Shown: piece by piece, positions 3,559 through 60,578 of the stretch | How positions within the stretch are numbered: the first letter of the stretch is position 1 | Layout of the letters: the number at the start of each line of letters is the position of its first letter | Source of the DNA: Bacteroidota bacterium | GTDB lineage: Bacteria; Bacteroidota; JABWAT01 | DNA length: 64,000 nt | Reading direction: 5' to 3' | Assembly (NCBI GenBank): GCA_017303995.1 | Contig: JAFLBE010000007.1 | Coordinates: forward strand, 26,163-90,162 | Program-made: the position numbers and the translations under genes | Notes under the pieces: generated by a model | What the model was told of the DNA's origin: nothing | The model's database searches: none | What the model saw: only the letters and a program-made list of their open reading frames with translations

Positions 3559-4617
3559 ATGAAAATAAAATCAAAATTAAAATCCCCGTTTTTTGAAATT
3601 GGTATTAAAATAGTTTGGTTCAGTTTTTCCATCCAGACAGTTTTCTGTGCATGTGGAAACAACGATTCAAAAACTATTACTTTGTTGAATGTTTCCTATG
3701 ATCCAACCCGGGAACTCTATCAGGAATATGATTCTGTTTTTGCTGCGTATTGGAAGGAAAAGACAGGGAAGATTGTTGAAATCCATCAATCACATGGCGG
3801 TTCGGGGAAACAGGCACGGGCTGTTATTGACGGATTAGAAGCAGATGTGATTACTCTGGCTCTTGCATTCGACATTGATAACATTGCTGAAAAAGCCAAT
3901 TTACTTCCGCCAGACTGGCAGCAACGACTTCCAAACAACAGTTCACCTTATACTTCTACGATCATTTTTCTGGTACGGAAGGGAAATCCCAAACAGATTA
4001 AGGATTGGGATGATTTAGTGAGGCCCGGTGTCTCTGTCATCACGCCAAACCCAAAAACCTCTGGGGGTGCACGGTGGAATTATCTGGCTGCCTTCGGTTT
4101 TGCACTTGAAAAATTCAAGAACGATTCAACAAAAGCTAAAGCTTTTTTGGCTGACCTTTTCAAAAATGTTCCTGTTCTTGATTCCGGGGCAAGAGGATCG
4201 GCAACAACTTTTACTGAACGTGGAATTGGTGATGTTTTGATTACCTGGGAAAATGAAGCCTATCTCATTCTCAACTTCCCGGAAAAAGACAACTATGAAC
4301 CTGTTTATCCATCGGTCAGTATTCTGGCAGAACCGCCGGTTGCAGTTGTTGATTCAGTTGCTGTAAAACACGGAAGCCATGAAGTTGCAAAGGCCTATCT
4401 GGAGTTCCTTTATGAGAAAAAAAGTCAGGAAATCATAGTAAAGAACTACTACCGTCCGAATAACCCTGAACTTGCAGAAATGTATAAGTCACAATTTCCT
4501 GCACTTCGTCAATTCACCATAGACAAAGATTTTGGCGGATGGAAGGTGGCACAAAAACTGCATTTTAGTGATGGCGGAATTTTTGACCAGATTTACAAAC
4601 CAACAGAGAAAAAATAA
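3559..4617 (+). CDS. sbp: Sulfate/thiosulfate ABC transporter substrate-binding protein
   Basis: Signal peptide plus a Sbp/CysP-like periplasmic binding fold ([18 protein letters not shown]). It sits immediately upstream of cysTWA. Confidence 0.85.
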
Positions 4618-4662: not shown

Positions 4663-5499
4663 ATGTTCGAATTGAAAAAATCATTTTCGGTTCACAAAGG
4701 GTTCGGGTTAACACTCGGTATCACTTTGTTTTATTTAGGCCTGATGCTGATTATTCCGCTTTCAACCCTTTTCTTTAAAACATTTACACTGACCTGGGAC
4801 TCATTCTGGACAACAGTAACTGATGAAAGGGTGATGAGAGCCTATCAGGTCAGTTTTGGAACAGCATTTTTAGCTGCTGGAGTTAATCTGTTTTTCGGAA
4901 CGTTGATTGCCTGGGTTTTGGTTCGCTATCAGTTTTTCGGAAAAAGAATTCTTGATGCGCTGATTGATTTTCCCTTCGCTTTGCCAACTGCTGTTGCCGG
5001 AATTTGCCTGACAACACTTTTTGCCTCATCTGGATGGATTGGAAATCTTCTGGATGGATTTGGAATCCAGGTTGTATTTACACAATGGGGAATTACCATT
5101 GCTCTGATTTTTATTACACTTCCTTTCTCAGTGAGAAGTATTCAGCCGGTTCTTGAAGATTTGAATCCGGAGGTGGAAGAAGCTGCAATCAGTCTGGGTG
5201 CAAACCGGTGGCAGCTTTTTTCCAGAATTATTGTTCCTGAACTACTGCCAGCTGCCTTTGCAGGATTTACACTTTCTTTCGCCCGAGCCCTGGGTGAGTA
5301 CGGATCTGTTGTATTTATTTCAGGAAATCTTCCCTTTAAAACAGAAATCGCACCGCTGCTCATCGTTACGAAGCTTGAGCAGTACGATTATGCCGGTGCA
5401 ACCTCAATTGCAGTTGTGCTTCTCATCTTTTCATTTATCACCCTTATTATTCTGAACAGCCTGCAAAGTTTGAACAGAACCTGGAAAAGCAGGAACTGA
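4663..5499 (+). CDS. cysT: Sulfate ABC transporter permease CysT
   Basis: Polytopic permease with the EAA-like loop EEAAISLGANRWQLF, in the sbp-cysTWA arrangement. Confidence 0.9.
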   Translation: MFELKKSFSVHKGFGLTLGITLFYLGLMLIIPLSTLFFKTFTLTWDSFWTTVTDERVMRAYQVSFGTAFLAAGVNLFFGTLIAWVLVRYQFFGKRILDALIDFPFALPTAVAGICLTTLFASSGWIGNLLDGFGIQVVFTQWGITIALIFITLPFSVRSIQPVLEDLNPEVEEAAISLGANRWQLFSRIIVPELLPAAFAGFTLSFARALGEYGSVVFISGNLPFKTEIAPLLIVTKLEQYDYAGATSIAVVLLIFSFITLIILNSLQSLNRTWKSRN

Positions 5500-6380: not shown

Positions 6381-7399
6381 GTATCCAGATTGAAAATCTG
6401 ACCAAAAAGTTTGGCACTTTTACTGCTGTCGATCAGCTTTCCCTTACCGTCAATGATGGTGAACTATTGGCTTTGCTGGGTCCGTCTGGCTGCGGAAAAA
6501 CGACTTTACTGCGCATGATTGCCGGACTGGAAAACCCCGATCAGGGGACAATAAAATTTCAAGAAAATGAAAACCAGGTAATCGAAAACCGGATCGGATT
6601 TGTTTTTCAGCATTATGCCTTGTTCAGGCACATGACCGTTTTTGAAAATGTTGCTTTTGGGCTAAAAGTAAAACCACGATCCATCCGACCTTCAAAAGAA
6701 GAAATCAAAACAAAAGTTTTTGACCTGCTTAAAATGGTGCAGCTTGACTGGGCTGTGAACCGGTTACCCTCTGAACTTTCAGGTGGTCAGAGACAACGGG
6801 TTGCGTTGGCACGTGCGCTTGCCATTGAACCCAAAGTTTTGCTTCTCGATGAACCGTTTGGTGCGCTTGATGCAAAAGTCCGGAAGGAACTCCGTCGCTG
6901 GTTACGCCATCTTCATGACGAATTGAAAATTACAAGTGTGTTTGTAACTCACGATCAGGAAGAAGCCCTTGAAGTTTCTGACAGGATTGTCATCATGAAT
7001 CAGGGAAAAATTCTGCAGCAGGGAACGCCGGAAGAGGTCTATGCCCATCCGGCAAATCCGTTTGTGTTTAATTTTCTCGGAAATGTGAATCTTTTTCATG
7101 GACGGATTGAAAATGGTGAAGCCAATCAGGTCGGATTCGTCCGTCCGCATGACATCAGCCTCGAACTAACACCAAATGGATTGGATCGGTTTGAGGCTGT
7201 TGTTGACCGAGTATTTTCAATTGGAAACTTAACCCGGGTTGAGCTGAAATTAACTGAATCAGGACGATTTGTTGATTCAGAAATCACCAAGGAAACTTTT
7301 GATAAACTGCAAATTAAAACCGGCGATAAAGTTTTTATCAAATTGAATAAAATTAAAGTCTTTCAGGCAGATCAGAATCAACCTGAATACAGTATTTAA
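6377..7399 (+). CDS. cysA: Sulfate ABC transporter ATP-binding protein CysA
   Basis: Walker [13 protein letters not shown] signature [15 protein letters not shown], and a C-terminal TOBE/MOP-like domain. Confidence 0.9.
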
Positions 7400-7425: not shown

Positions 7426-7962
7426 ATGTCAAACGGATTTACCATTTGGTTAACCGGACATAGCGGTGCAGGAAAATCAACGCTTGCCCATGCACTTGAA
7501 AAGGAATTGACGTCCCGTCATATTTCTACCGAAGTTTTGGATGGTGATATAGTGAGGACAAATTTGTCTCAGGGATTAACTTTTTCACCTGAGGACAGGA
7601 ACATCAATGTTCAGCGGATCGGATTTGTTGCTTCGTTGCTTTCAAAGCATGGTGTAGGTGTTATTGTTTCAGCAATTTCCCCTTACAGGACGGCCCGGGA
7701 AAGCGTCAGGAAGTCAATTCCGGGATTTGTTGAGGTTTATGTGAATTGCCCGGTTGAAGAATGTGAACGCCGTGACGTGAAAGGACTTTATAAAAAAGCT
7801 AGAAACGGTGAAATCCCATCTTTTACCGGAATTAACGATCCATATGAACCACCTTTAAATCCTGAAGTGGAAGTCAGAACCGACCTGGAATCCCTTCAGG
7901 AATCCACCAGAAAAATCATCTGCTTTCTGGAACAACAAAATTTAATCGGGGAAATCAAATGA
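7426..7962 (+). CDS. cysC: Adenylylsulfate (APS) kinase
   Basis: P-loop [17 protein letters not shown] motif, [12 protein letters not shown]. Confidence 0.9.
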
Positions 7963-8842: not shown

Positions 8843-8877
8843 GAATAACGAATAACGAATAGCGAATTACGAAACGA
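8843..8877. repeat. Heptanucleotide tandem-repeat array 1 (GAATAAC x2, GAATAGC, GAATTAC, GAAACGA) in the cysD-cysN spacer
   Basis: Exact period-7 phasing read directly. It is followed by AGTTCTGCGATGCC (8878-8891) and then a CCCCCTCC hairpin. Confidence 0.7.
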
Positions 8878-8929
8878 TAGTTCTGCGATGCCAATTCAGA
8901 ATAATGGAAAACACCATTTTCTGAAATAC

Positions 8930-8948
8930 CCCCCTCCAACGGAGGGGG
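8930..8948. repeat. GC hairpin CCCCCTCC-aac-GGAGGGGG, a member of the CCCCTCC hairpin family
   Basis: Perfect 8-bp inverted repeat. The same stem sequence recurs at 38546-38566, 41433-41455 and 41513-41533. Confidence 0.7.
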
Positions 8949-14727: not shown

Positions 14728-14750
14728 AAACCCACCATCAAAATCCTGTC

Positions 14751-14813
14751 TTCTGACTCCAGACTCCTGACTTCTGACTCCTGCAATCTTTCTTCTGTCA
14801 CCTGAATTCTGTA
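14751..14813. repeat. Heptanucleotide tandem-repeat array 3 (TTCTGAC TCCAGAC TCCTGAC TTCTGAC TCCTGCA ATCTTTC TTCTGTC ACCTGAA TTCTGTA) upstream of gatB
   Basis: Nine phased 7-mers read directly. Unit YYCTGAC shares the TGAC/GTCA core with arrays 4 and 6. Confidence 0.7.
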
Positions 14814-16290: not shown

Positions 16291-16332
16291 GGTTTTCAGA
16301 AAAATTGCCGGATTATTTGCTGTTATAAATAG

Positions 16333-16372
16333 GATGTCATCCCCGTCCCGAAAGCTTTCGGGACGGGGATCC
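16333..16372. repeat. TGTCATCC-family nested palindrome (ATCCCCGTCCCGAAAGC/TTTCGGGACGGGGAT)
   Basis: Perfect 17-bp inverted repeat headed by GATGTCATCC. Related copies are at 33251, 42966/43031, 45291 and 58042. Confidence 0.7.
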
Positions 16373-16573
16373 ATGCCTTTCTTCACCAATTTCGATTTTC
16401 CCCTCCAAATAAACCCCTTTCTCATATTCATCCGAATAATAATCGTAGTAATTGAATTATTCAGAATTATATTCATTTATTTTTCTCGTAAACGTGTATT
16501 GTATAAATAATAGTTGGTATTATCTTTGTAATCCAAATTATATTCAACGGTAAAACAGGTAAGGAAATTCTGA

Positions 16574-18692: not shown

Positions 18693-18702
18693 TTGATTTT
18701 TG

Positions 18703-18731
18703 GTAGAGACAAGGCAATGCCTTGTCTCTAC
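18703..18731 (+). terminator. Hairpin GTAGAGACAAGGCA-a-TGCCTTGTCTCTAC downstream of tpiA, followed by a partial direct repeat of its 3' arm
   Basis: Perfect 14-bp stem. The next 25 nt (ttatttcattgccttgtctctacgc) repeat the descending arm. Confidence 0.55.
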
Positions 18732-18883
18732 TTATTTCATTGCCTTGTCTCTACGCTTCAAAATCCACAGCCTCCTTGATTCAATCCCGTTTTCCTGCTA
18801 CCTTTTCAACTTAATTCCGGAAACTCCGGAATCCTTTTAAACCATGAATCCGGTTTAACTGTCCTTAAACCGGACGGACAGGT

Positions 18884-33209: not shown

Positions 33210-33250
33210 TCCACTTGAGTTAAATTCCCAACAGGTTGCATTTCCACACT

Positions 33251-33299
33251 GTCATCCCCGTGAAGACGGGATAATGAAGTTCTGCGAAGCCATCCCGTA
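33251..33299. repeat. TGTCATCC-family element: GTCATCCCCGTGAAGACGGGAT plus an AAGTTCTGCGAAGCC module inside an ACGGGAT/ATCCCGT hairpin
   Basis: Read directly. The AAGTTCTGCGAAGC module is also at 58068-58082 and, as AGTTCTGCGATGCC, at 8878-8891. Confidence 0.65.
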
Positions 33300-33488
33300 T
33301 TAAGAGCATTGATCCAAGATCCCCAAAACGTTCGGGGTAAGCTAAGTCTCCAGGTTTCACCGGATCCGCGGTTCGTAAACGAACCTTGGACGGGAAGACA
33401 TCTGATTCAGAATCCTAATTGCATACCTATTTTCTCGCTTACCTTTAGTTCTAACTAACCTCTTAATCCCTATAACCCATTTTTCTTG

Positions 33489-38456: not shown

Positions 38457-38462
38457 TAACCA

Positions 38463-38634
38463 GTGACAAGTTACAAGTGACAAGTTACAAGTGGTAAGTT
38501 ATAAGTGACAAATTACAGGTTACGGGTGACACGAGAATAAAAACTCCCCTCCTTTTTAAGGAGGGGAAATCAGTCGTAAGACTGATGGGGTGGTTCGGTC
38601 TTTGGCCCACGTCCCATGTCCCCTGTCACTTGTC
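38463..38634. repeat. 172-bp composite intergenic element: left heptamer array 4 (10 units), CCCCTCC hairpin, right inverted heptamer array (MITE-like terminal inverted arrays)
   Basis: Left array GTGACAA GTTACAA ... GTGACAC (38463-38532). Hairpin CCCCTCCTT-ttt-AAGGAGGGG (38546-66). Right array GTCCCAT GTCCCCT GTCACTT GTCACCA (38607-34) is in inverse orientation. Confidence 0.65.
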
Positions 38635-38662: not shown

Positions 38663-39760
38663 ATGAATTATAAGATTGTGGTCCTGCCCGGTGATGGAAT
38701 CGGACCTGAAGTTGTAGAAGCCTCCATTCCGGTCATGACCGAAGTTGGAAAAAAATTTGGCGTCAGTTTTGATTTTGATGTTCGTCTTTTTGGCGGATGC
38801 AGTTTTGATAAGTTCGGTGAGCCGGTAACTGTTGAAACACTCAGTGCCTGTGCAAACGCTGATGCCGTTCTGCTTGGTGCAGTTGGCGGACCGAAATGGG
38901 AATCACTTCCTCATGATAAAAAACCGGAAGCCGGTCTTCTGAAACTCAGAAAATCACTTGAACTCTATGCCAATATTCGTCCAGCCCGGGTTTACACCGG
39001 TCTTGCAGAAGGTTCAACACTGAAGAAGGAAGTTATTGCCGGCGTTGATCTAGTTGTTGTACGTGAATTAACTGGCGGATTGTATTTCGGTCAACCCCGG
39101 GGTATGACTGAAGACAAAGGCTGGAATACCATGGCCTACACCAAAGATGAAATCATCCGGATTGCAAAATCAGCTTTTGAACTTGCAAAAAAACGCAGAA
39201 AAACACTTTGTTCAGTAGATAAAGCCAATGTACTTGAAGTTTCCCAATTTTGGCGGAATGTGGTTCTTGAAGTTGCCCGTGATTATCCGGATGTTAAACT
39301 CAGCCACATGTATGTTGATAATGCCGCCATGCAATTAGTGCGAAATCCGGCCCAGTTTGACGTCATCCTGACCGAAAACATGTTCGGTGATATTCTCAGT
39401 GATATTGCTTCGATGATTCCCGGAAGTCTGGGTATGTTGCCTTCAGCATCACTTGGAACCAAATATGCGTTGTATGAACCCGTTCACGGTTCTGCACCTG
39501 ATATTGCCGGACAAAACAAAGCCAACCCCATTGCAACTATTGCTTCCATCGGAATGCTTTTTGATAACAGTCTCGGTATGCATATCGCCAGCGATTATAT
39601 TCAGAAATCCATTGAAAAAACACTTGAGCAAGGTTATCGGACCGCCGATATTTATTCTGAGGGAACCACACTTCTCGGTACGAAGGAAATGGCAGAAAAA
39701 GTAAAAGAATCCTTCCTTCAGATTTTTGAAGAACAGCCTTACGGATTTGCAGTAGCCTGA
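38663..39760 (+). CDS. leuB: 3-isopropylmalate dehydrogenase
   Basis: Isocitrate/isopropylmalate dehydrogenase family; NMFGDILSD signature. 365 aa. Confidence 0.95.
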
Positions 39761-41387: not shown

Positions 41388-41533
41388 GGTTACGGGTCAC
41401 AGATAACGGGTCACAGGTTAATGTGTGAAATTCCCCTCCTTTTATAAAGGAGGGGTGGCGAAGCCGGGGTGGTTTTGTTTTGGGTTTAGATAATAACTAA
41501 ACCTCCCCTAGCCCCTCCTTTGAAAAAGGAGGG
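41388..41533. repeat. Composite intergenic element: heptamer array 5 (GGTTACG GGTCACA GATAACG GGTCACA GGTTAAT GTGTGAA) plus two CCCCTCC hairpins
   Basis: Array 41388-41429. Hairpins CCCCTCCTTTTA-taa-AGGAGGGG (41433-55) and CCCTCCTTT-gaaa-AAGGAGGG (41513-33). It lies in the 250-bp leuA-leuC spacer. Confidence 0.65.
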
Positions 41534-42933: not shown

Positions 42934-42965
42934 GGAAAGATTTGTTTTAAAATTTGGTTAACGTG

Positions 42966-43060
42966 GATGTCATCCCGGACTTAGCCTGCCCCGAACGCTT
43001 TCGGGGATTCGGGATCCAGTTTTTTTAACAATGGATCCTGACTTTCGTCAGGATGACACA
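42966..43060. repeat. Head-to-head pair of TGTCATCC-family palindromes in the leuC-leuD spacer
   Basis: P1 is GTCATCCCGGAC...CCCCGAAcgctTTCGGGG...CGGGAT (42966-43017). P2 is ATCCTGACtttcGTCAGGATGACAC (43031-43060), whose reverse complement starts TGTCATCCTGAC. They flank a T7 run. Confidence 0.65.
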
Positions 43061-43081
43061 AATCCAAAACAAAGGAAATTT

Positions 43082-43648
43082 ATGGAAAAAGTGATTACAG
43101 GAAAAGCTTTCGTTCTCGGTGATAAAATCGATACCGATCAGATCATTCCGGCAGAACATCTGGTTTACAGTTTATCCGATCCGGAAGAAAAAAAGAAATA
43201 TGGCTATTATGCCTTTTCAGGAGTTCCTCTTCCTGAATCTGGTTTGCCGATGGGTCACAAACCCTTCATCAAAGGTGATAATTATCTGTCAGAATATGCT
43301 ATCATCATTGGTGGCGGAAATTTTGGTTGCGGATCAAGCCGTGAACATGCTCCGTTTGCGCTTCAGGTTGCAGGCGTAAAAGCTGTCATCGCTGAATCTT
43401 ATGCCCGGATCTTTTACCGGAATTGTGTTGATGGTGGTTTTCTGATTCCTTATGAAGGATTCGAAAAACTGAATGACAAGATCAAAACCGGAGACGAACT
43501 GGAAATTGATATTTCTGCAAATCTGGTAAAAAATCTGACAACCGGCGATGAGTTTCTTCTGAAACCACTCGGAAGTGTTGTGTCGATCATTGAAGCAGGT
43601 GATCTGTTTGAATATGCCCGTAAAACCGGGATGATTGCAAAAGGTTGA
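43082..43648 (+). CDS. leuD: 3-isopropylmalate dehydratase small subunit
   Basis: Aconitase C-terminal swivel domain (IIGGGNFGCGSSREHAP). The start was moved to MEKVITG; the track's N-terminal extension lies over the palindromic repeat. Confidence 0.85.
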   Translation: MEKVITGKAFVLGDKIDTDQIIPAEHLVYSLSDPEEKKKYGYYAFSGVPLPESGLPMGHKPFIKGDNYLSEYAIIIGGGNFGCGSSREHAPFALQVAGVKAVIAESYARIFYRNCVDGGFLIPYEGFEKLNDKIKTGDELEIDISANLVKNLTTGDEFLLKPLGSVVSIIEAGDLFEYARKTGMIAKG

Positions 43649-45290: not shown

Positions 45291-45319
45291 TGTCATTCCG
45301 GCTCCGGCCGGAATTGACG
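45291..45319. repeat. TGTCATTCC-family palindrome (TGTCATTCCGGCTCCGGCCGGAATTGACG) between cimA and thrA
   Basis: ATTCCGGC...GCCGGAAT inverted repeat read directly; the next run is ttttaaaaa. Confidence 0.6.
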
Positions 45320-57972: not shown

Positions 57973-58041
57973 TTTTAGGGGCAGCTGGTCTGCCTCTTTT
58001 TTTCAGTTGGGGTAATTTCCGTATTTCTTGGGATGCCCATC

Positions 58042-58082
58042 TGTCATTCCCGCGAAGGCGGGTTAACAAAGTTCTGCGAAGC
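58042..58082. repeat. TGTCATTCC-family element (TGTCATTCCCGCGAAGGCGGG plus the AAGTTCTGCGAAGC module)
   Basis: Read directly; it matches 33251-33290 in both modules. Confidence 0.65.
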
Positions 58083-59350: not shown

Positions 59351-59482
59351 GTTAGATTTTGTTTTTTAAAGAGAAACCACGTATTTGATCATTTTTTCTG
59401 ACAAATAAAGTCTGAATCAGGCACTTCGACTCCGCTCAGTGACCGTTTCATGCTCATTTTTTTAATTTGTTCATCGTACCCC

Positions 59483-60507: not shown

Positions 60508-60533
60508 TTGAATAGTAGAATTGTCACAAAAAC

Positions 60534-60566
60534 AAAAAAGTCCGTAAAAACGGACTTTTTTGTTTT
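60534..60566. terminator. Bidirectional intrinsic terminator AAAAAAGTCCG-taaaaa-CGGACTTTTTT between convergent dusB and the response-regulator gene
   Basis: Perfect stem with an A-run on one side and a T-run on the other. It sits 27 nt after the dusB stop and 12 nt after the minus-strand gene's stop. Confidence 0.75.
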
Positions 60567-60578
60567 TGTATTTTCCAA

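Follow-up and report, generated by a model that had tools for sequence, protein, structure and literature searches.

Hairpin repeats in a Melioribacteraceae-like genome are probable members of the Ssn-related motif family

We analysed a 64,000-nt stretch of a Bacteroidota bacterium genome (contig JAFLBE010000007.1, positions 26,163 to 90,162; hereafter the window), in which short hairpin repeats headed by TGTCAT lie in the gatB-metC, leuC-leuD and leuA-thrA spacers and in other intergenic DNA (Table 1). The G+C content of the window is 41%, and the plus strand is probably the leading strand, because nearly all genes lie on it and the GC skew is positive. Its LeuC shares 77% identity with the Melioribacter roseus protein, and the window is therefore from an Ignavibacteria, Melioribacteraceae-like genome. 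A first-pass annotation made from the sequence alone had described five copies of the hairpin and one inverted partner as a dispersed family, and this observation was confirmed: all six were present where they had been placed, as dispersed, oriented repeats in intergenic and intra-operon spacers, and a seventh, decayed copy on the minus strand had been missed. The hairpins are probably, as judged from sequence and structure, members of the family of Ssn-related motifs (SRM), also represented by the Neisseria NTS; some are intact and some decayed.

SRMs were defined across bacterial phyla, on 29 genomes from 4 phyla, by Chenal et al. (Nat Commun 2025; PMC11893778). The founding example is the Neisseria NTS, CGTCATTCCCGCGMAVGCGGGAATCYRG, which encloses the dRS3 palindrome and was strictly defined as that sequence with at most one mismatch; the general search string is HGTCWYN(0-2)YYVSBRHN(0-5)WNVSBRGN(0-2)RNCYNB. 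SsnA, a GIY-YIG protein of 94 aa, binds the motif solely as single-stranded DNA (ssDNA), and Ssn nicks a few nt 5' of the motif while being inactive on double-stranded DNA, RNA and the opposite strand. Binding requires the stem sequence and a C directly 3' of the palindrome, cleavage requires GTC, the three bases immediately 5' of the palindrome, and changing the stem sequence with the structure kept abolished the activity of Neisseria meningitidis SsnA. The ssn gene typically lies between two inverted, heads-out SRMs; the paper left open whether this SRM-ssn-SRM arrangement can move as an element and by what means SRMs increase in number (PMC11893778).

A pattern search with TGTCATYCC gave 6 matches in the window against 1.48 expected, 5 of them intergenic and on the plus strand. 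On both strands of the 5.3 kb of intergenic DNA, which makes up 8% of the window, TGTCATYC occurred 6 times against 0.33 expected, a count reached by none of 2000 shuffles. A generic definition, GTCA followed by any stem of at least 6 bp, was not enriched (30 matches against 27 expected) and was dropped as too loose; the family signal is the specific head together with a G+C-rich stem. Rfam has no model for these hairpins and returned nothing over any copy at gathering or E-value thresholds, in line with the prediction that standard annotation would miss them.

To compare the copies with known SRMs, we used a covariance model, R1, built from an alignment of 56 SRMs that all came from other organisms and phyla. 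The alignment was 97% paired; both partners had changed in 6 of the 8 pairs, and the covariation score of the alignment was 0.436 compared with 0.132 for shuffles and at most 0.16 when partner columns were slid. R1 recovered three window copies with high scores, namely copy 1 (32.9 bits, E 2.5e-6), copy 3' (32.0 bits, E 4.6e-6) and copy 3 (25.1 bits, E 3e-4). Copies 4, 5 and 2 reached only 11-16 bits (E 0.1-2): 15.8 bits (E 0.11) for copy 4, a partial match of 12.2 bits for copy 5 and 11.1 bits (E 2) for copy 2. The minus-strand copy at 33.3 kb was not detected by R1. Furthermore, R1 found SRMs in two close relatives of the window, locus L005 and 'Bacteroidetes bacterium BAC1' (loci L138 and L140), and in the Ignavibacteria locus L136. 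Head enrichment, covariation and model scores together exclude a chance origin of the hairpin family.

The good copies share a frame that consists of (GGA)TGTCAT, a palindrome starting with (T)CCC, and ATCCA(G/T). Copy 1 contains a perfect palindrome of 32 nt at 16339-16370, with arms of 16 nt and not of 17 bp as had been reported; it folds into 14 bp with a 4-nt loop (DNA fold -19.3 kcal/mol, z -6.5). Copy 3 holds in its loop a nested hairpin, CCCCGAACGCTTTCGGGG (42989-43006), and its inverted partner, copy 3', begins with TGTCATCCT at 43031-43060 and lies 20 nt upstream of the leuD start. Gene calls in relatives put the actual start codon of leuD, an ATG, at 43083; the mechanical leuD open reading frame (ORF) starts at 43031, within the inverted SRM. 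Copies 3 and 3' form a gene-less heads-out doublet with a fold of -23.3 kcal/mol (z -4.2), and copy 4, which is kept in L005, folds with -11 kcal/mol (z -4.3). The hairpin is thus present in copies 1, 3+3' and 4, with z values from -4.2 to -6.5, while copies 2 and 5 fold no better than shuffles: copy 2 keeps the head but only a bulged 5-bp stem (z -0.8), without the C after the palindrome and without the ATCCAG tail, and copy 5 has a 5-bp stem (z -1.4) and has lost its right-hand AAT and tail. In viral contigs, AATCCAG comes after the 21-mer of copies 2 and 5 in 43 of 73 cases; copy 5 can therefore be recognized as the 5' two-thirds, identical, of the commonest cross-bacterial SRM, with the AATCCAG tail replaced by TTAACAA and a 3' module, AAGTTCTGCGAAGC. 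As had been noted, two copies carry this identical 14-nt module (at 33277 and 58069). In the seventh copy the head is mutated (GATGTCTTCCCG); an insert of 42 nt follows, holding a separate hairpin, GGTTCGTTTACGAACC, and then comes GACTTAGCTTACCCCGAACGTTTTGGGGATCTTGGATCAATG. Global alignment of this copy with copy 3 scored 55 against 22.6 +/- 4.3 for shuffles. An inner hairpin, CCCCGAACG(C/T)TTT(C/G)GGGG, is common to the seventh copy and, as the nested hairpin, to copy 3, and the apex of copy 1 is a related hairpin, CCCGAAAGCTTTCGGG.

The two determinants required by Ssn divide these copies. A head of the HGTCWY type precedes the palindrome throughout, as TGTCAT in six copies, in keeping with the first description, but as GTCTT in the seventh. 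The C/ATCCAG-type tail reads ATCCAT, ATCCAG and ATCCAT in copies 1, 3 and 3', and the base after the palindrome is A, T and A in copies 2, 4 and 5. The stem formula first given, ATCCCNG...CNGGGAT, suits copies 1 and 3; copy 4 has ATTCC...GGAAT instead, and the stems of copies 2 and 5 are poor. Based on the determinants in PMC11893778, copies 1, 3 and 3', which keep both, are predicted Ssn substrates, and the copies at 33250, 33307-33402, 45291 and 58042, which have a head but lack the C or the tail, appear to be relics; this split agrees with the R1 scores.

We also scanned one genome per species for the head and tail, GGATGTCATCCC-N10-40-GGGATCCA. At least 118 loci matched, from Proteobacteria, Planctomycetes, Acidobacteriota, candidate phyla and others; among them were L136 from Ignavibacteria and, from the closely related BAC1, L138 and L140. 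Nearly all of the 124 matches listed were hairpins, with stems that vary yet stay complementary. The frame is therefore not genome-specific, as had been supposed, but recurs in many phyla. The published SRM string was matched exactly by the L005 ortholog of copy 3, by one copy in L138 (the ortholog of copy 1 by position) and by one in L140.

The partner gene was sought with phmmer, using a GIY-YIG consensus as probe, and the ORFs found were then checked with Pfam. GIY-YIG ORFs of 95-100 aa that match PF01541 adjoin the motif in five loci (L092, L010, L040, L061 and L114), and the gene in L092 is bracketed by GGATGTCATCCCCGCGCAGGCGGGGATCCAC. In 80 metagenomic ssn loci we found 186 R1 matches; 72 of the 97 matches of the strict string in these loci lay within 250 nt of ssn, and the commonest two-sided layout, seen 13 times, was SRM(+), ssn, SRM(-). 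A full-library phmmer search showed that the Ssn protein family comprises 15,993 clusters at 50% identity with E <=1e-3. Two of the homologs (P0351 and P0348) are annotated as Ignavibacteriaceae, and in their Ignavibacteriaceae metagenome-assembled genomes (MAGs) ssn lies between htpG and clpB with TTGTCATTCCCGACTTGATCGGGAATCC upstream and the inverted GATTCCCACTTACGTGGGAATGACA downstream. Two profile searches, the full-library phmmer and two cluster look-ups yielded no Ssn assignable to BAC1 or Melioribacteraceae; a cognate, cd10448-type Ssn would be predicted for the genome of the window. An Ssn from Xanthobacteraceae (Alphaproteobacteria) sits in the 90%-identity cluster of representative P0385, which is 63% identical to the Ignavibacteriaceae Ssn and among its closest relatives in 1.8 billion representatives; these similarities suggest that the ssn unit may have been transferred horizontally between phyla. 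Many Ssn database entries carry N-terminal extensions, and SRMs can extend ORFs.

We compared the spacers with those of relatives reached via homology search. The closest are L005, a Logan contig with 95% nucleotide identity to the window, and BAC1 (L138), with 90-94%; L001 (GCA_013360915.1) is syntenic and has a LeuC 90% identical to that of the window. The leuC-leuD spacer measures 149 bp in the window and 126 bp in L005, compared with 17 bp in L001, 10 bp in L274, 20 bp in M. roseus and 50 bp in L272, and it is 113 bp without any SRM in L275. Similarly, the leuA-thrA spacer is 99 bp in the window and 24 bp in L001, and the distance from pbp4 to the next gene is 279 bp and 8 bp, respectively. 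At the L001 leuC-leuD junction, TAAGGAAAG|GGAAACAGATCATG, the window carries about 126 bp of inserted DNA. R1 detected no SRM in about 109 kb of L001, L272, L274, L275 and M. roseus, whose syntenic spacers are SRM-free and, except in L275, compact (10-50 bp). Since the corresponding sites in these more distantly related genomes are compact spacers and empty of SRMs, the SRM copies are insertions relative to the sister lineages. The family also extends beyond the region, so that a purely local duplication does not account for it: BAC1 has two further SRMs at L140, a locus outside the window region.

Two orthologous sites showed that head and tail stay identical between near-identical genomes while the interior differs. 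In BAC1 (L138), the ortholog of copy 1 agrees with it in flanks, head and tail but has the canonical interior, CCCCGCGAAGGCGGGG (R1 48.1 bits), with CCCCG-CGAAGG-CGGGG where the window has CCCCG-TCCCGAAAGCTTTCGGGA-CGGGG. At the copy 3 site, L005 has the simple form TGTCATCCCGGACTCGATCCGGGATCCAG, with CGA in place of the 27-nt nested segment of the window. Because the copy at 33.3 kb repeats the long form of copy 3, conversion between copies would be the simplest reading of these replacements, and the proposal that the copies exchange sequence fits such a replacement of hairpin interiors. In L102, a composite GTCATCCCGGACTTGATGAGCCTGCCCCGG... has a AGCCTGCCCCG junction in common with window copy 3 despite phylum-level distance.

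The heads-out geometry of the leuC-leuD pair is that of an ssn unit from which the gene is missing. Close gene-less SRM pairs in other genomes were convergent in 13 cases, divergent in 1 and tandem in 5, thus mostly heads-out, although these counts include several pairs from one Ramlibacter MAG and are not independent. In tandem truncated copies the junction lies immediately 5' of GGATGTCAT, which would, speculatively, agree with a unit that ends close to where cleavage is reported; 5'-truncated SRMs lie directly upstream of full copies in L089, L112, L160, L166 and L172 (of which at least L089 and L112 belong to Ramlibacter). A longer mobile unit was sought, and an upstream ATTTG/TTTGTTTT was consistent solely at the leuC-leuD doublet; the upstream flanks of the other copies are AT-rich spacer, and neither a boundary nor a target-site duplication could be assigned. 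The doublet resembles miniature inverted-repeat transposable elements (MITEs) such as the Neisseria Correia element in that an insertion of about 126 bp sits in an operon spacer with inverted ends, TTTGTTTT...AAAACAAA and then TGTCATCC...GGATGACA. Unlike MITEs, it has no definable target-site duplication and no known cognate DDE transposase, and SRM single copies without inverted ends are dispersed as well.

In the explanation that we favour, the elements are SRMs. In the characterised systems the GTCAT strand folds into a hairpin when single-stranded, and a single-domain GIY-YIG Ssn of about 95 aa binds this hairpin and nicks a few nt 5' of the motif (PMC11893778). The ssn gene normally sits between inverted, heads-out SRMs, and gene-less copies build up in intergenic DNA. 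The window copies are insertions relative to the sister lineages, three with both determinants kept and four decayed; they would presumably be cut by Ssn, and their spread would be driven by Ssn or by recombination between copies. What this analysis establishes is family membership in terms of sequence and structure, the polarity of insertion and the presence of the SRM-ssn-SRM unit in other Ignavibacteria. The resemblance to SRM/NTS and SsnA comprises the GTCAT head, the palindrome starting with (T)CCC, the C/ATCCAG tail, compensatory stem variation, dispersed intergenic copies, pairs placed heads-out as around ssn, sister-genome orthologs that match the search string, and the unit carried by Ignavibacteriaceae.

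Several points weigh against this explanation. The published SRM string gave 0 matches in the window (shuffles 0.14), because the stems of the window copies are longer or nested or their tails are lost. The strict NTS also gave 0 window matches, even with 3 mismatches, and strict dRS3 (ATTCCC-N8-GGGAAT) was absent, its single 1-mismatch match, at 39416, being intragenic and at chance level. The likeness to dRS3 drawn in the first-pass annotation was apt, since the NTS/SRM family CGTCATTCCCGCG..GCGGGAATCYRG contains dRS3, but the strict dRS3 and NTS definitions do not describe these copies. The NTS has dRS3 as its palindromic core, ATTCCCGCGAAGGCGGG occurs in copy 5, and the window spacers, like those with Neisseria dRS3/NIME, are mosaics of short modules; unlike in Neisseria, most window copies have ATCCC rather than ATTCCC, and there are no dRS3-bracketed RS units of 50-150 bp. 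Even the three good copies have longer or atypical stems, and stems so divergent may not all suit any single enzyme. Four of the seven window copies are tail-less relics, unlike published SRMs, and two of them are fused to the module AAGTTCTGCGAAGC; the organism that carries them belongs to an environmental lineage of Ignavibacteria. Searches for ssn in the 64-kb window, in about 27 kb of L005, L138 and L140, and in L136 found none, and a mechanism by which Ssn spreads SRMs has been demonstrated nowhere. Finally, 6 of 8 copies are co-oriented with transcription, which leaves some room for an RNA-level role.

With no ssn found, the main alternative is that the copies are relics without a nuclease: descended from SRMs, with ssn lost or never present and the copies received by recombination, they would be decaying DNA without function. 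The loss of tail and C in four of the seven copies and the lack of ssn in all DNA examined from the lineage (the window and the close-relative loci) fit this idea, and so does the report that an ssn homolog is lacking from 19% of genomes that contain over 200 SRMs (PMC11893778). The DNA examined, however, amounts to about 90 kb of a multi-megabase genome, and three copies keep head and tail exactly across a surrounding divergence of 5-10% while their interiors differ; we regard inert relics as unlikely. A role in RNA, with the hairpins acting as terminators, attenuators or stabilisers of mRNA 3' ends and the likeness to SRMs secondary, would agree with the position of most copies 3' of genes on the coding strand and with the T7 six bases past the stem of copy 3. 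Yet none of the copies was among the 49 terminator-like sites called in two 20-kb scans, which did call other hairpins in the same spacers (57977-57997 upstream of copy 5, 14695 and 18702); the gene upstream of copy 5 has its own true terminator at 57977-57997. Moreover, termination in the leuC-leuD spacer would break up an operon whose genes stay closely spaced in relatives, a conserved asymmetric head and tail is not a terminator feature, and the same frame is kept across phyla with different terminators. This role is improbable as the explanation of the family.

The first-pass annotation had also likened the hairpins to REP elements, which in the RAYT sense would be mobilised by a Y1 transposase of the IS200/IS605 type. 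REP heads are typically GTAG. The window copies are likewise short intergenic palindromes with a conserved 5' head, their heads-out doublets resemble the REPIN spreading unit, a repeat-flanked partner gene is common to both systems, and a Y1_Tnp gene is present in an Ignavibacteriaceae MAG. That gene, however, is flanked by another hairpin, CCCACGGATTTATCCGTGGG, of which the window has no copy, and in the same MAG the TGTCAT hairpins flank the GIY-YIG gene ssn and not Y1_Tnp; the head is GTCAT, SRMs are partnered by a GIY-YIG nuclease and not by a Y1 HUH transposase, and no Y1 gene is present in the window or in the roughly 27 kb of its close relatives. RAYT-like and ssn systems are thus distinct on one Ignavibacteriaceae contig, and we rejected the REP/RAYT identity as very improbable. 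On that contig (L265, 13050-13810) the Y1_Tnp protein, RAYT-like and 146 aa long, is flanked by at least three CCCACGGATTTATCCGTGGG hairpins and lies 2.8 kb from ssn, so that two hairpin-plus-nuclease systems stand side by side. Least credible of all is that the copies are target sites of a site-specific recombinase or phage integrase. Neisseria dRS3 is cited as the target of a phage recombinase (PMC11893778), but no recombinase, prophage or insertion sequence end abuts any window copy, and site use would explain neither the origin of the copies nor their conserved frame.

Beyond SRM membership, we tentatively consider a further possibility, itself doubtful: that the SRMs here are recently active non-autonomous mobile elements. 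Gene-less heads-out doublets would then be REPIN-like derivatives of SRM-ssn-SRM, copied or moved in trans via ssDNA intermediates nicked by Ssn, and interiors would be exchanged between copies.

The spacers contain other short repeats. A 13-nt version of the 3' module, AGTTCTGCGAWGC, comes after a decayed SRM in some places and after a heptamer array (GAAACGAT-AGTTCTGCGA) in others, and a copy of AAGTTCTGCGAAGC with 2 mismatches starts at 8878. The predicted sharing of this module with heptamer-repeat spacers was borne out by AGTTCTGCGAWGC at window position 8879 and in L140 of BAC1, the only one of 273 fetched loci, besides the window, in which the module was found; a search of viral contigs for it, as GAAACGATAGTTCTGCGAWGC, gave no match. 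The module contains GCGAAGC, which we take to be a very stable DNA mini-hairpin sequence. Tandem heptamer arrays (GAATAAC, TCCTGAC, AGTTACA, CCCATGT and others) lie in many spacers just past stop codons. Hairpins of a second family, with the form (T)CCCCTCC-loop-GGAGGGG(A), usually occur 3' of a heptamer array and often have GGGGTGG after them. The hairpins of this family at 38545 and 41433 each have a perfect 10-bp stem, and L275 has a similar CCCCTTT...AAAGGGG at 5270-5330.

Other hairpins were seen as well. At 59421-59446 on the minus strand, GGTCACTGAGCGGAGTCGAAGTGCC has a 12-nt loop, GAGCGGAGTCGA, in common with CGTCATACTGAGCGGAGTCGAAGTATGAC of the L275 leuC-leuD spacer (6758-6790), whose head CGTCATACT is that of the published NTSvar; this pair may represent a second SRM subtype in the clade. 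The hairpin GGTAGAGACAAGGC-AAT-GCCTTGTCTCTAC at 18702-18755, with a 13-bp stem and a REP-like GTAG head, was called terminator-like and is followed by a second copy of its 3' arm, CATTGCCTTGTCTCTAC; a fixed-spacing search for it in viral contigs found only 2 loci. Between convergent genes at 60526-60569 lies a perfect 20-bp A/T-rich palindrome, ACAAAAACAAAAAAGTCCGT-AAAA-ACGGACTTTTTTGTTTTTGT, which is likely a bidirectional terminator and gave weak, spurious Rfam Thr_leader matches.

Table 1. Positions of the SRM copies, 3' modules and other short repeats (window coordinates unless a locus is named)
Feature	Position	Strand	Context	Sequence
SRM copy 1, intact	16331..16377	+	gatB-metC spacer	AGGATGTCAT-CCCCGTCCCGAAAGCTTTCGGGACGGGG-ATCCATGCC
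SRM copy 2, decayed	33250..33272	+		TGTCATCCCCGTGAAGACGGGAT
Lineage-specific 3' module	33277..33290	+	in place of the SRM tail of copy 2	AAGTTCTGCGAAGC
Seventh copy, composite and decayed	~33307..33402	-	convergent with copy 2	
SRM copy 3	42964..43022	+	leuC-leuD spacer	GGATGTCATCCCGGA...TTCGGGATCCAG
SRM copy 3', intact, inverted partner	43028..43062	-	leuC-leuD spacer	TGTCATCCTGACGAAAGTCAGGATCCATTG
SRM copy 4, weak	45291..45318	+	leuA-thrA spacer	TGTCATTCCGGCTCCGGCCGGAATTGAC
SRM copy 5, truncated	58042..58062	+		TGTCATTCCCGCGAAGGCGGG
Second copy of 3' module	58069..58082	+	after copy 5	AAGTTCTGCGAAGC
13-nt module	8879-8891, 33278-33290, 58070-58082			AGTTCTGCGAWGC
13-nt module, L140	200-212	-	BAC1	AGTTCTGCGAWGC
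Heptamer arrays	8843-8873, 14744-14783, 38462-38523, 38606-38627, ~41388-41420			
Heptamer array, L140 (other heptamers)	~7730-7790	-	relative	
Heptamer array, L275 (other heptamers)	6700-6740		relative	
CCCCTCC hairpins	8930-8948, 38545-38567, 41433-41455, 41513-41533			

Taken together, the family appears to be one already known in kind, an Ignavibacteria instance of SRM/NTS with decayed or composite copies and a lineage-specific 3' module, and the occurrence of SRMs in one more phylum is no surprise. For annotation, the hairpins and the spurious ORFs that they create can be labelled as SRMs; in L136, spurious SRM peptides include 'WIPAFAGMT' and 'MYDWIPAFAGMTS' at 3710-3916. From the presence of SRMs one can also predict that the genome encodes a small GIY-YIG nuclease acting on ssDNA. 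The empty sister sites, the recurrent gene-less doublets and the interiors replaced between genomes that are 90-95% identical bear suggestively on how SRMs spread. If the copies are indeed mobile in the way tentatively proposed above, Ssn/SRM would be a new, GIY-YIG-driven class of hairpin transposable elements rather than a domesticated restriction-like system.

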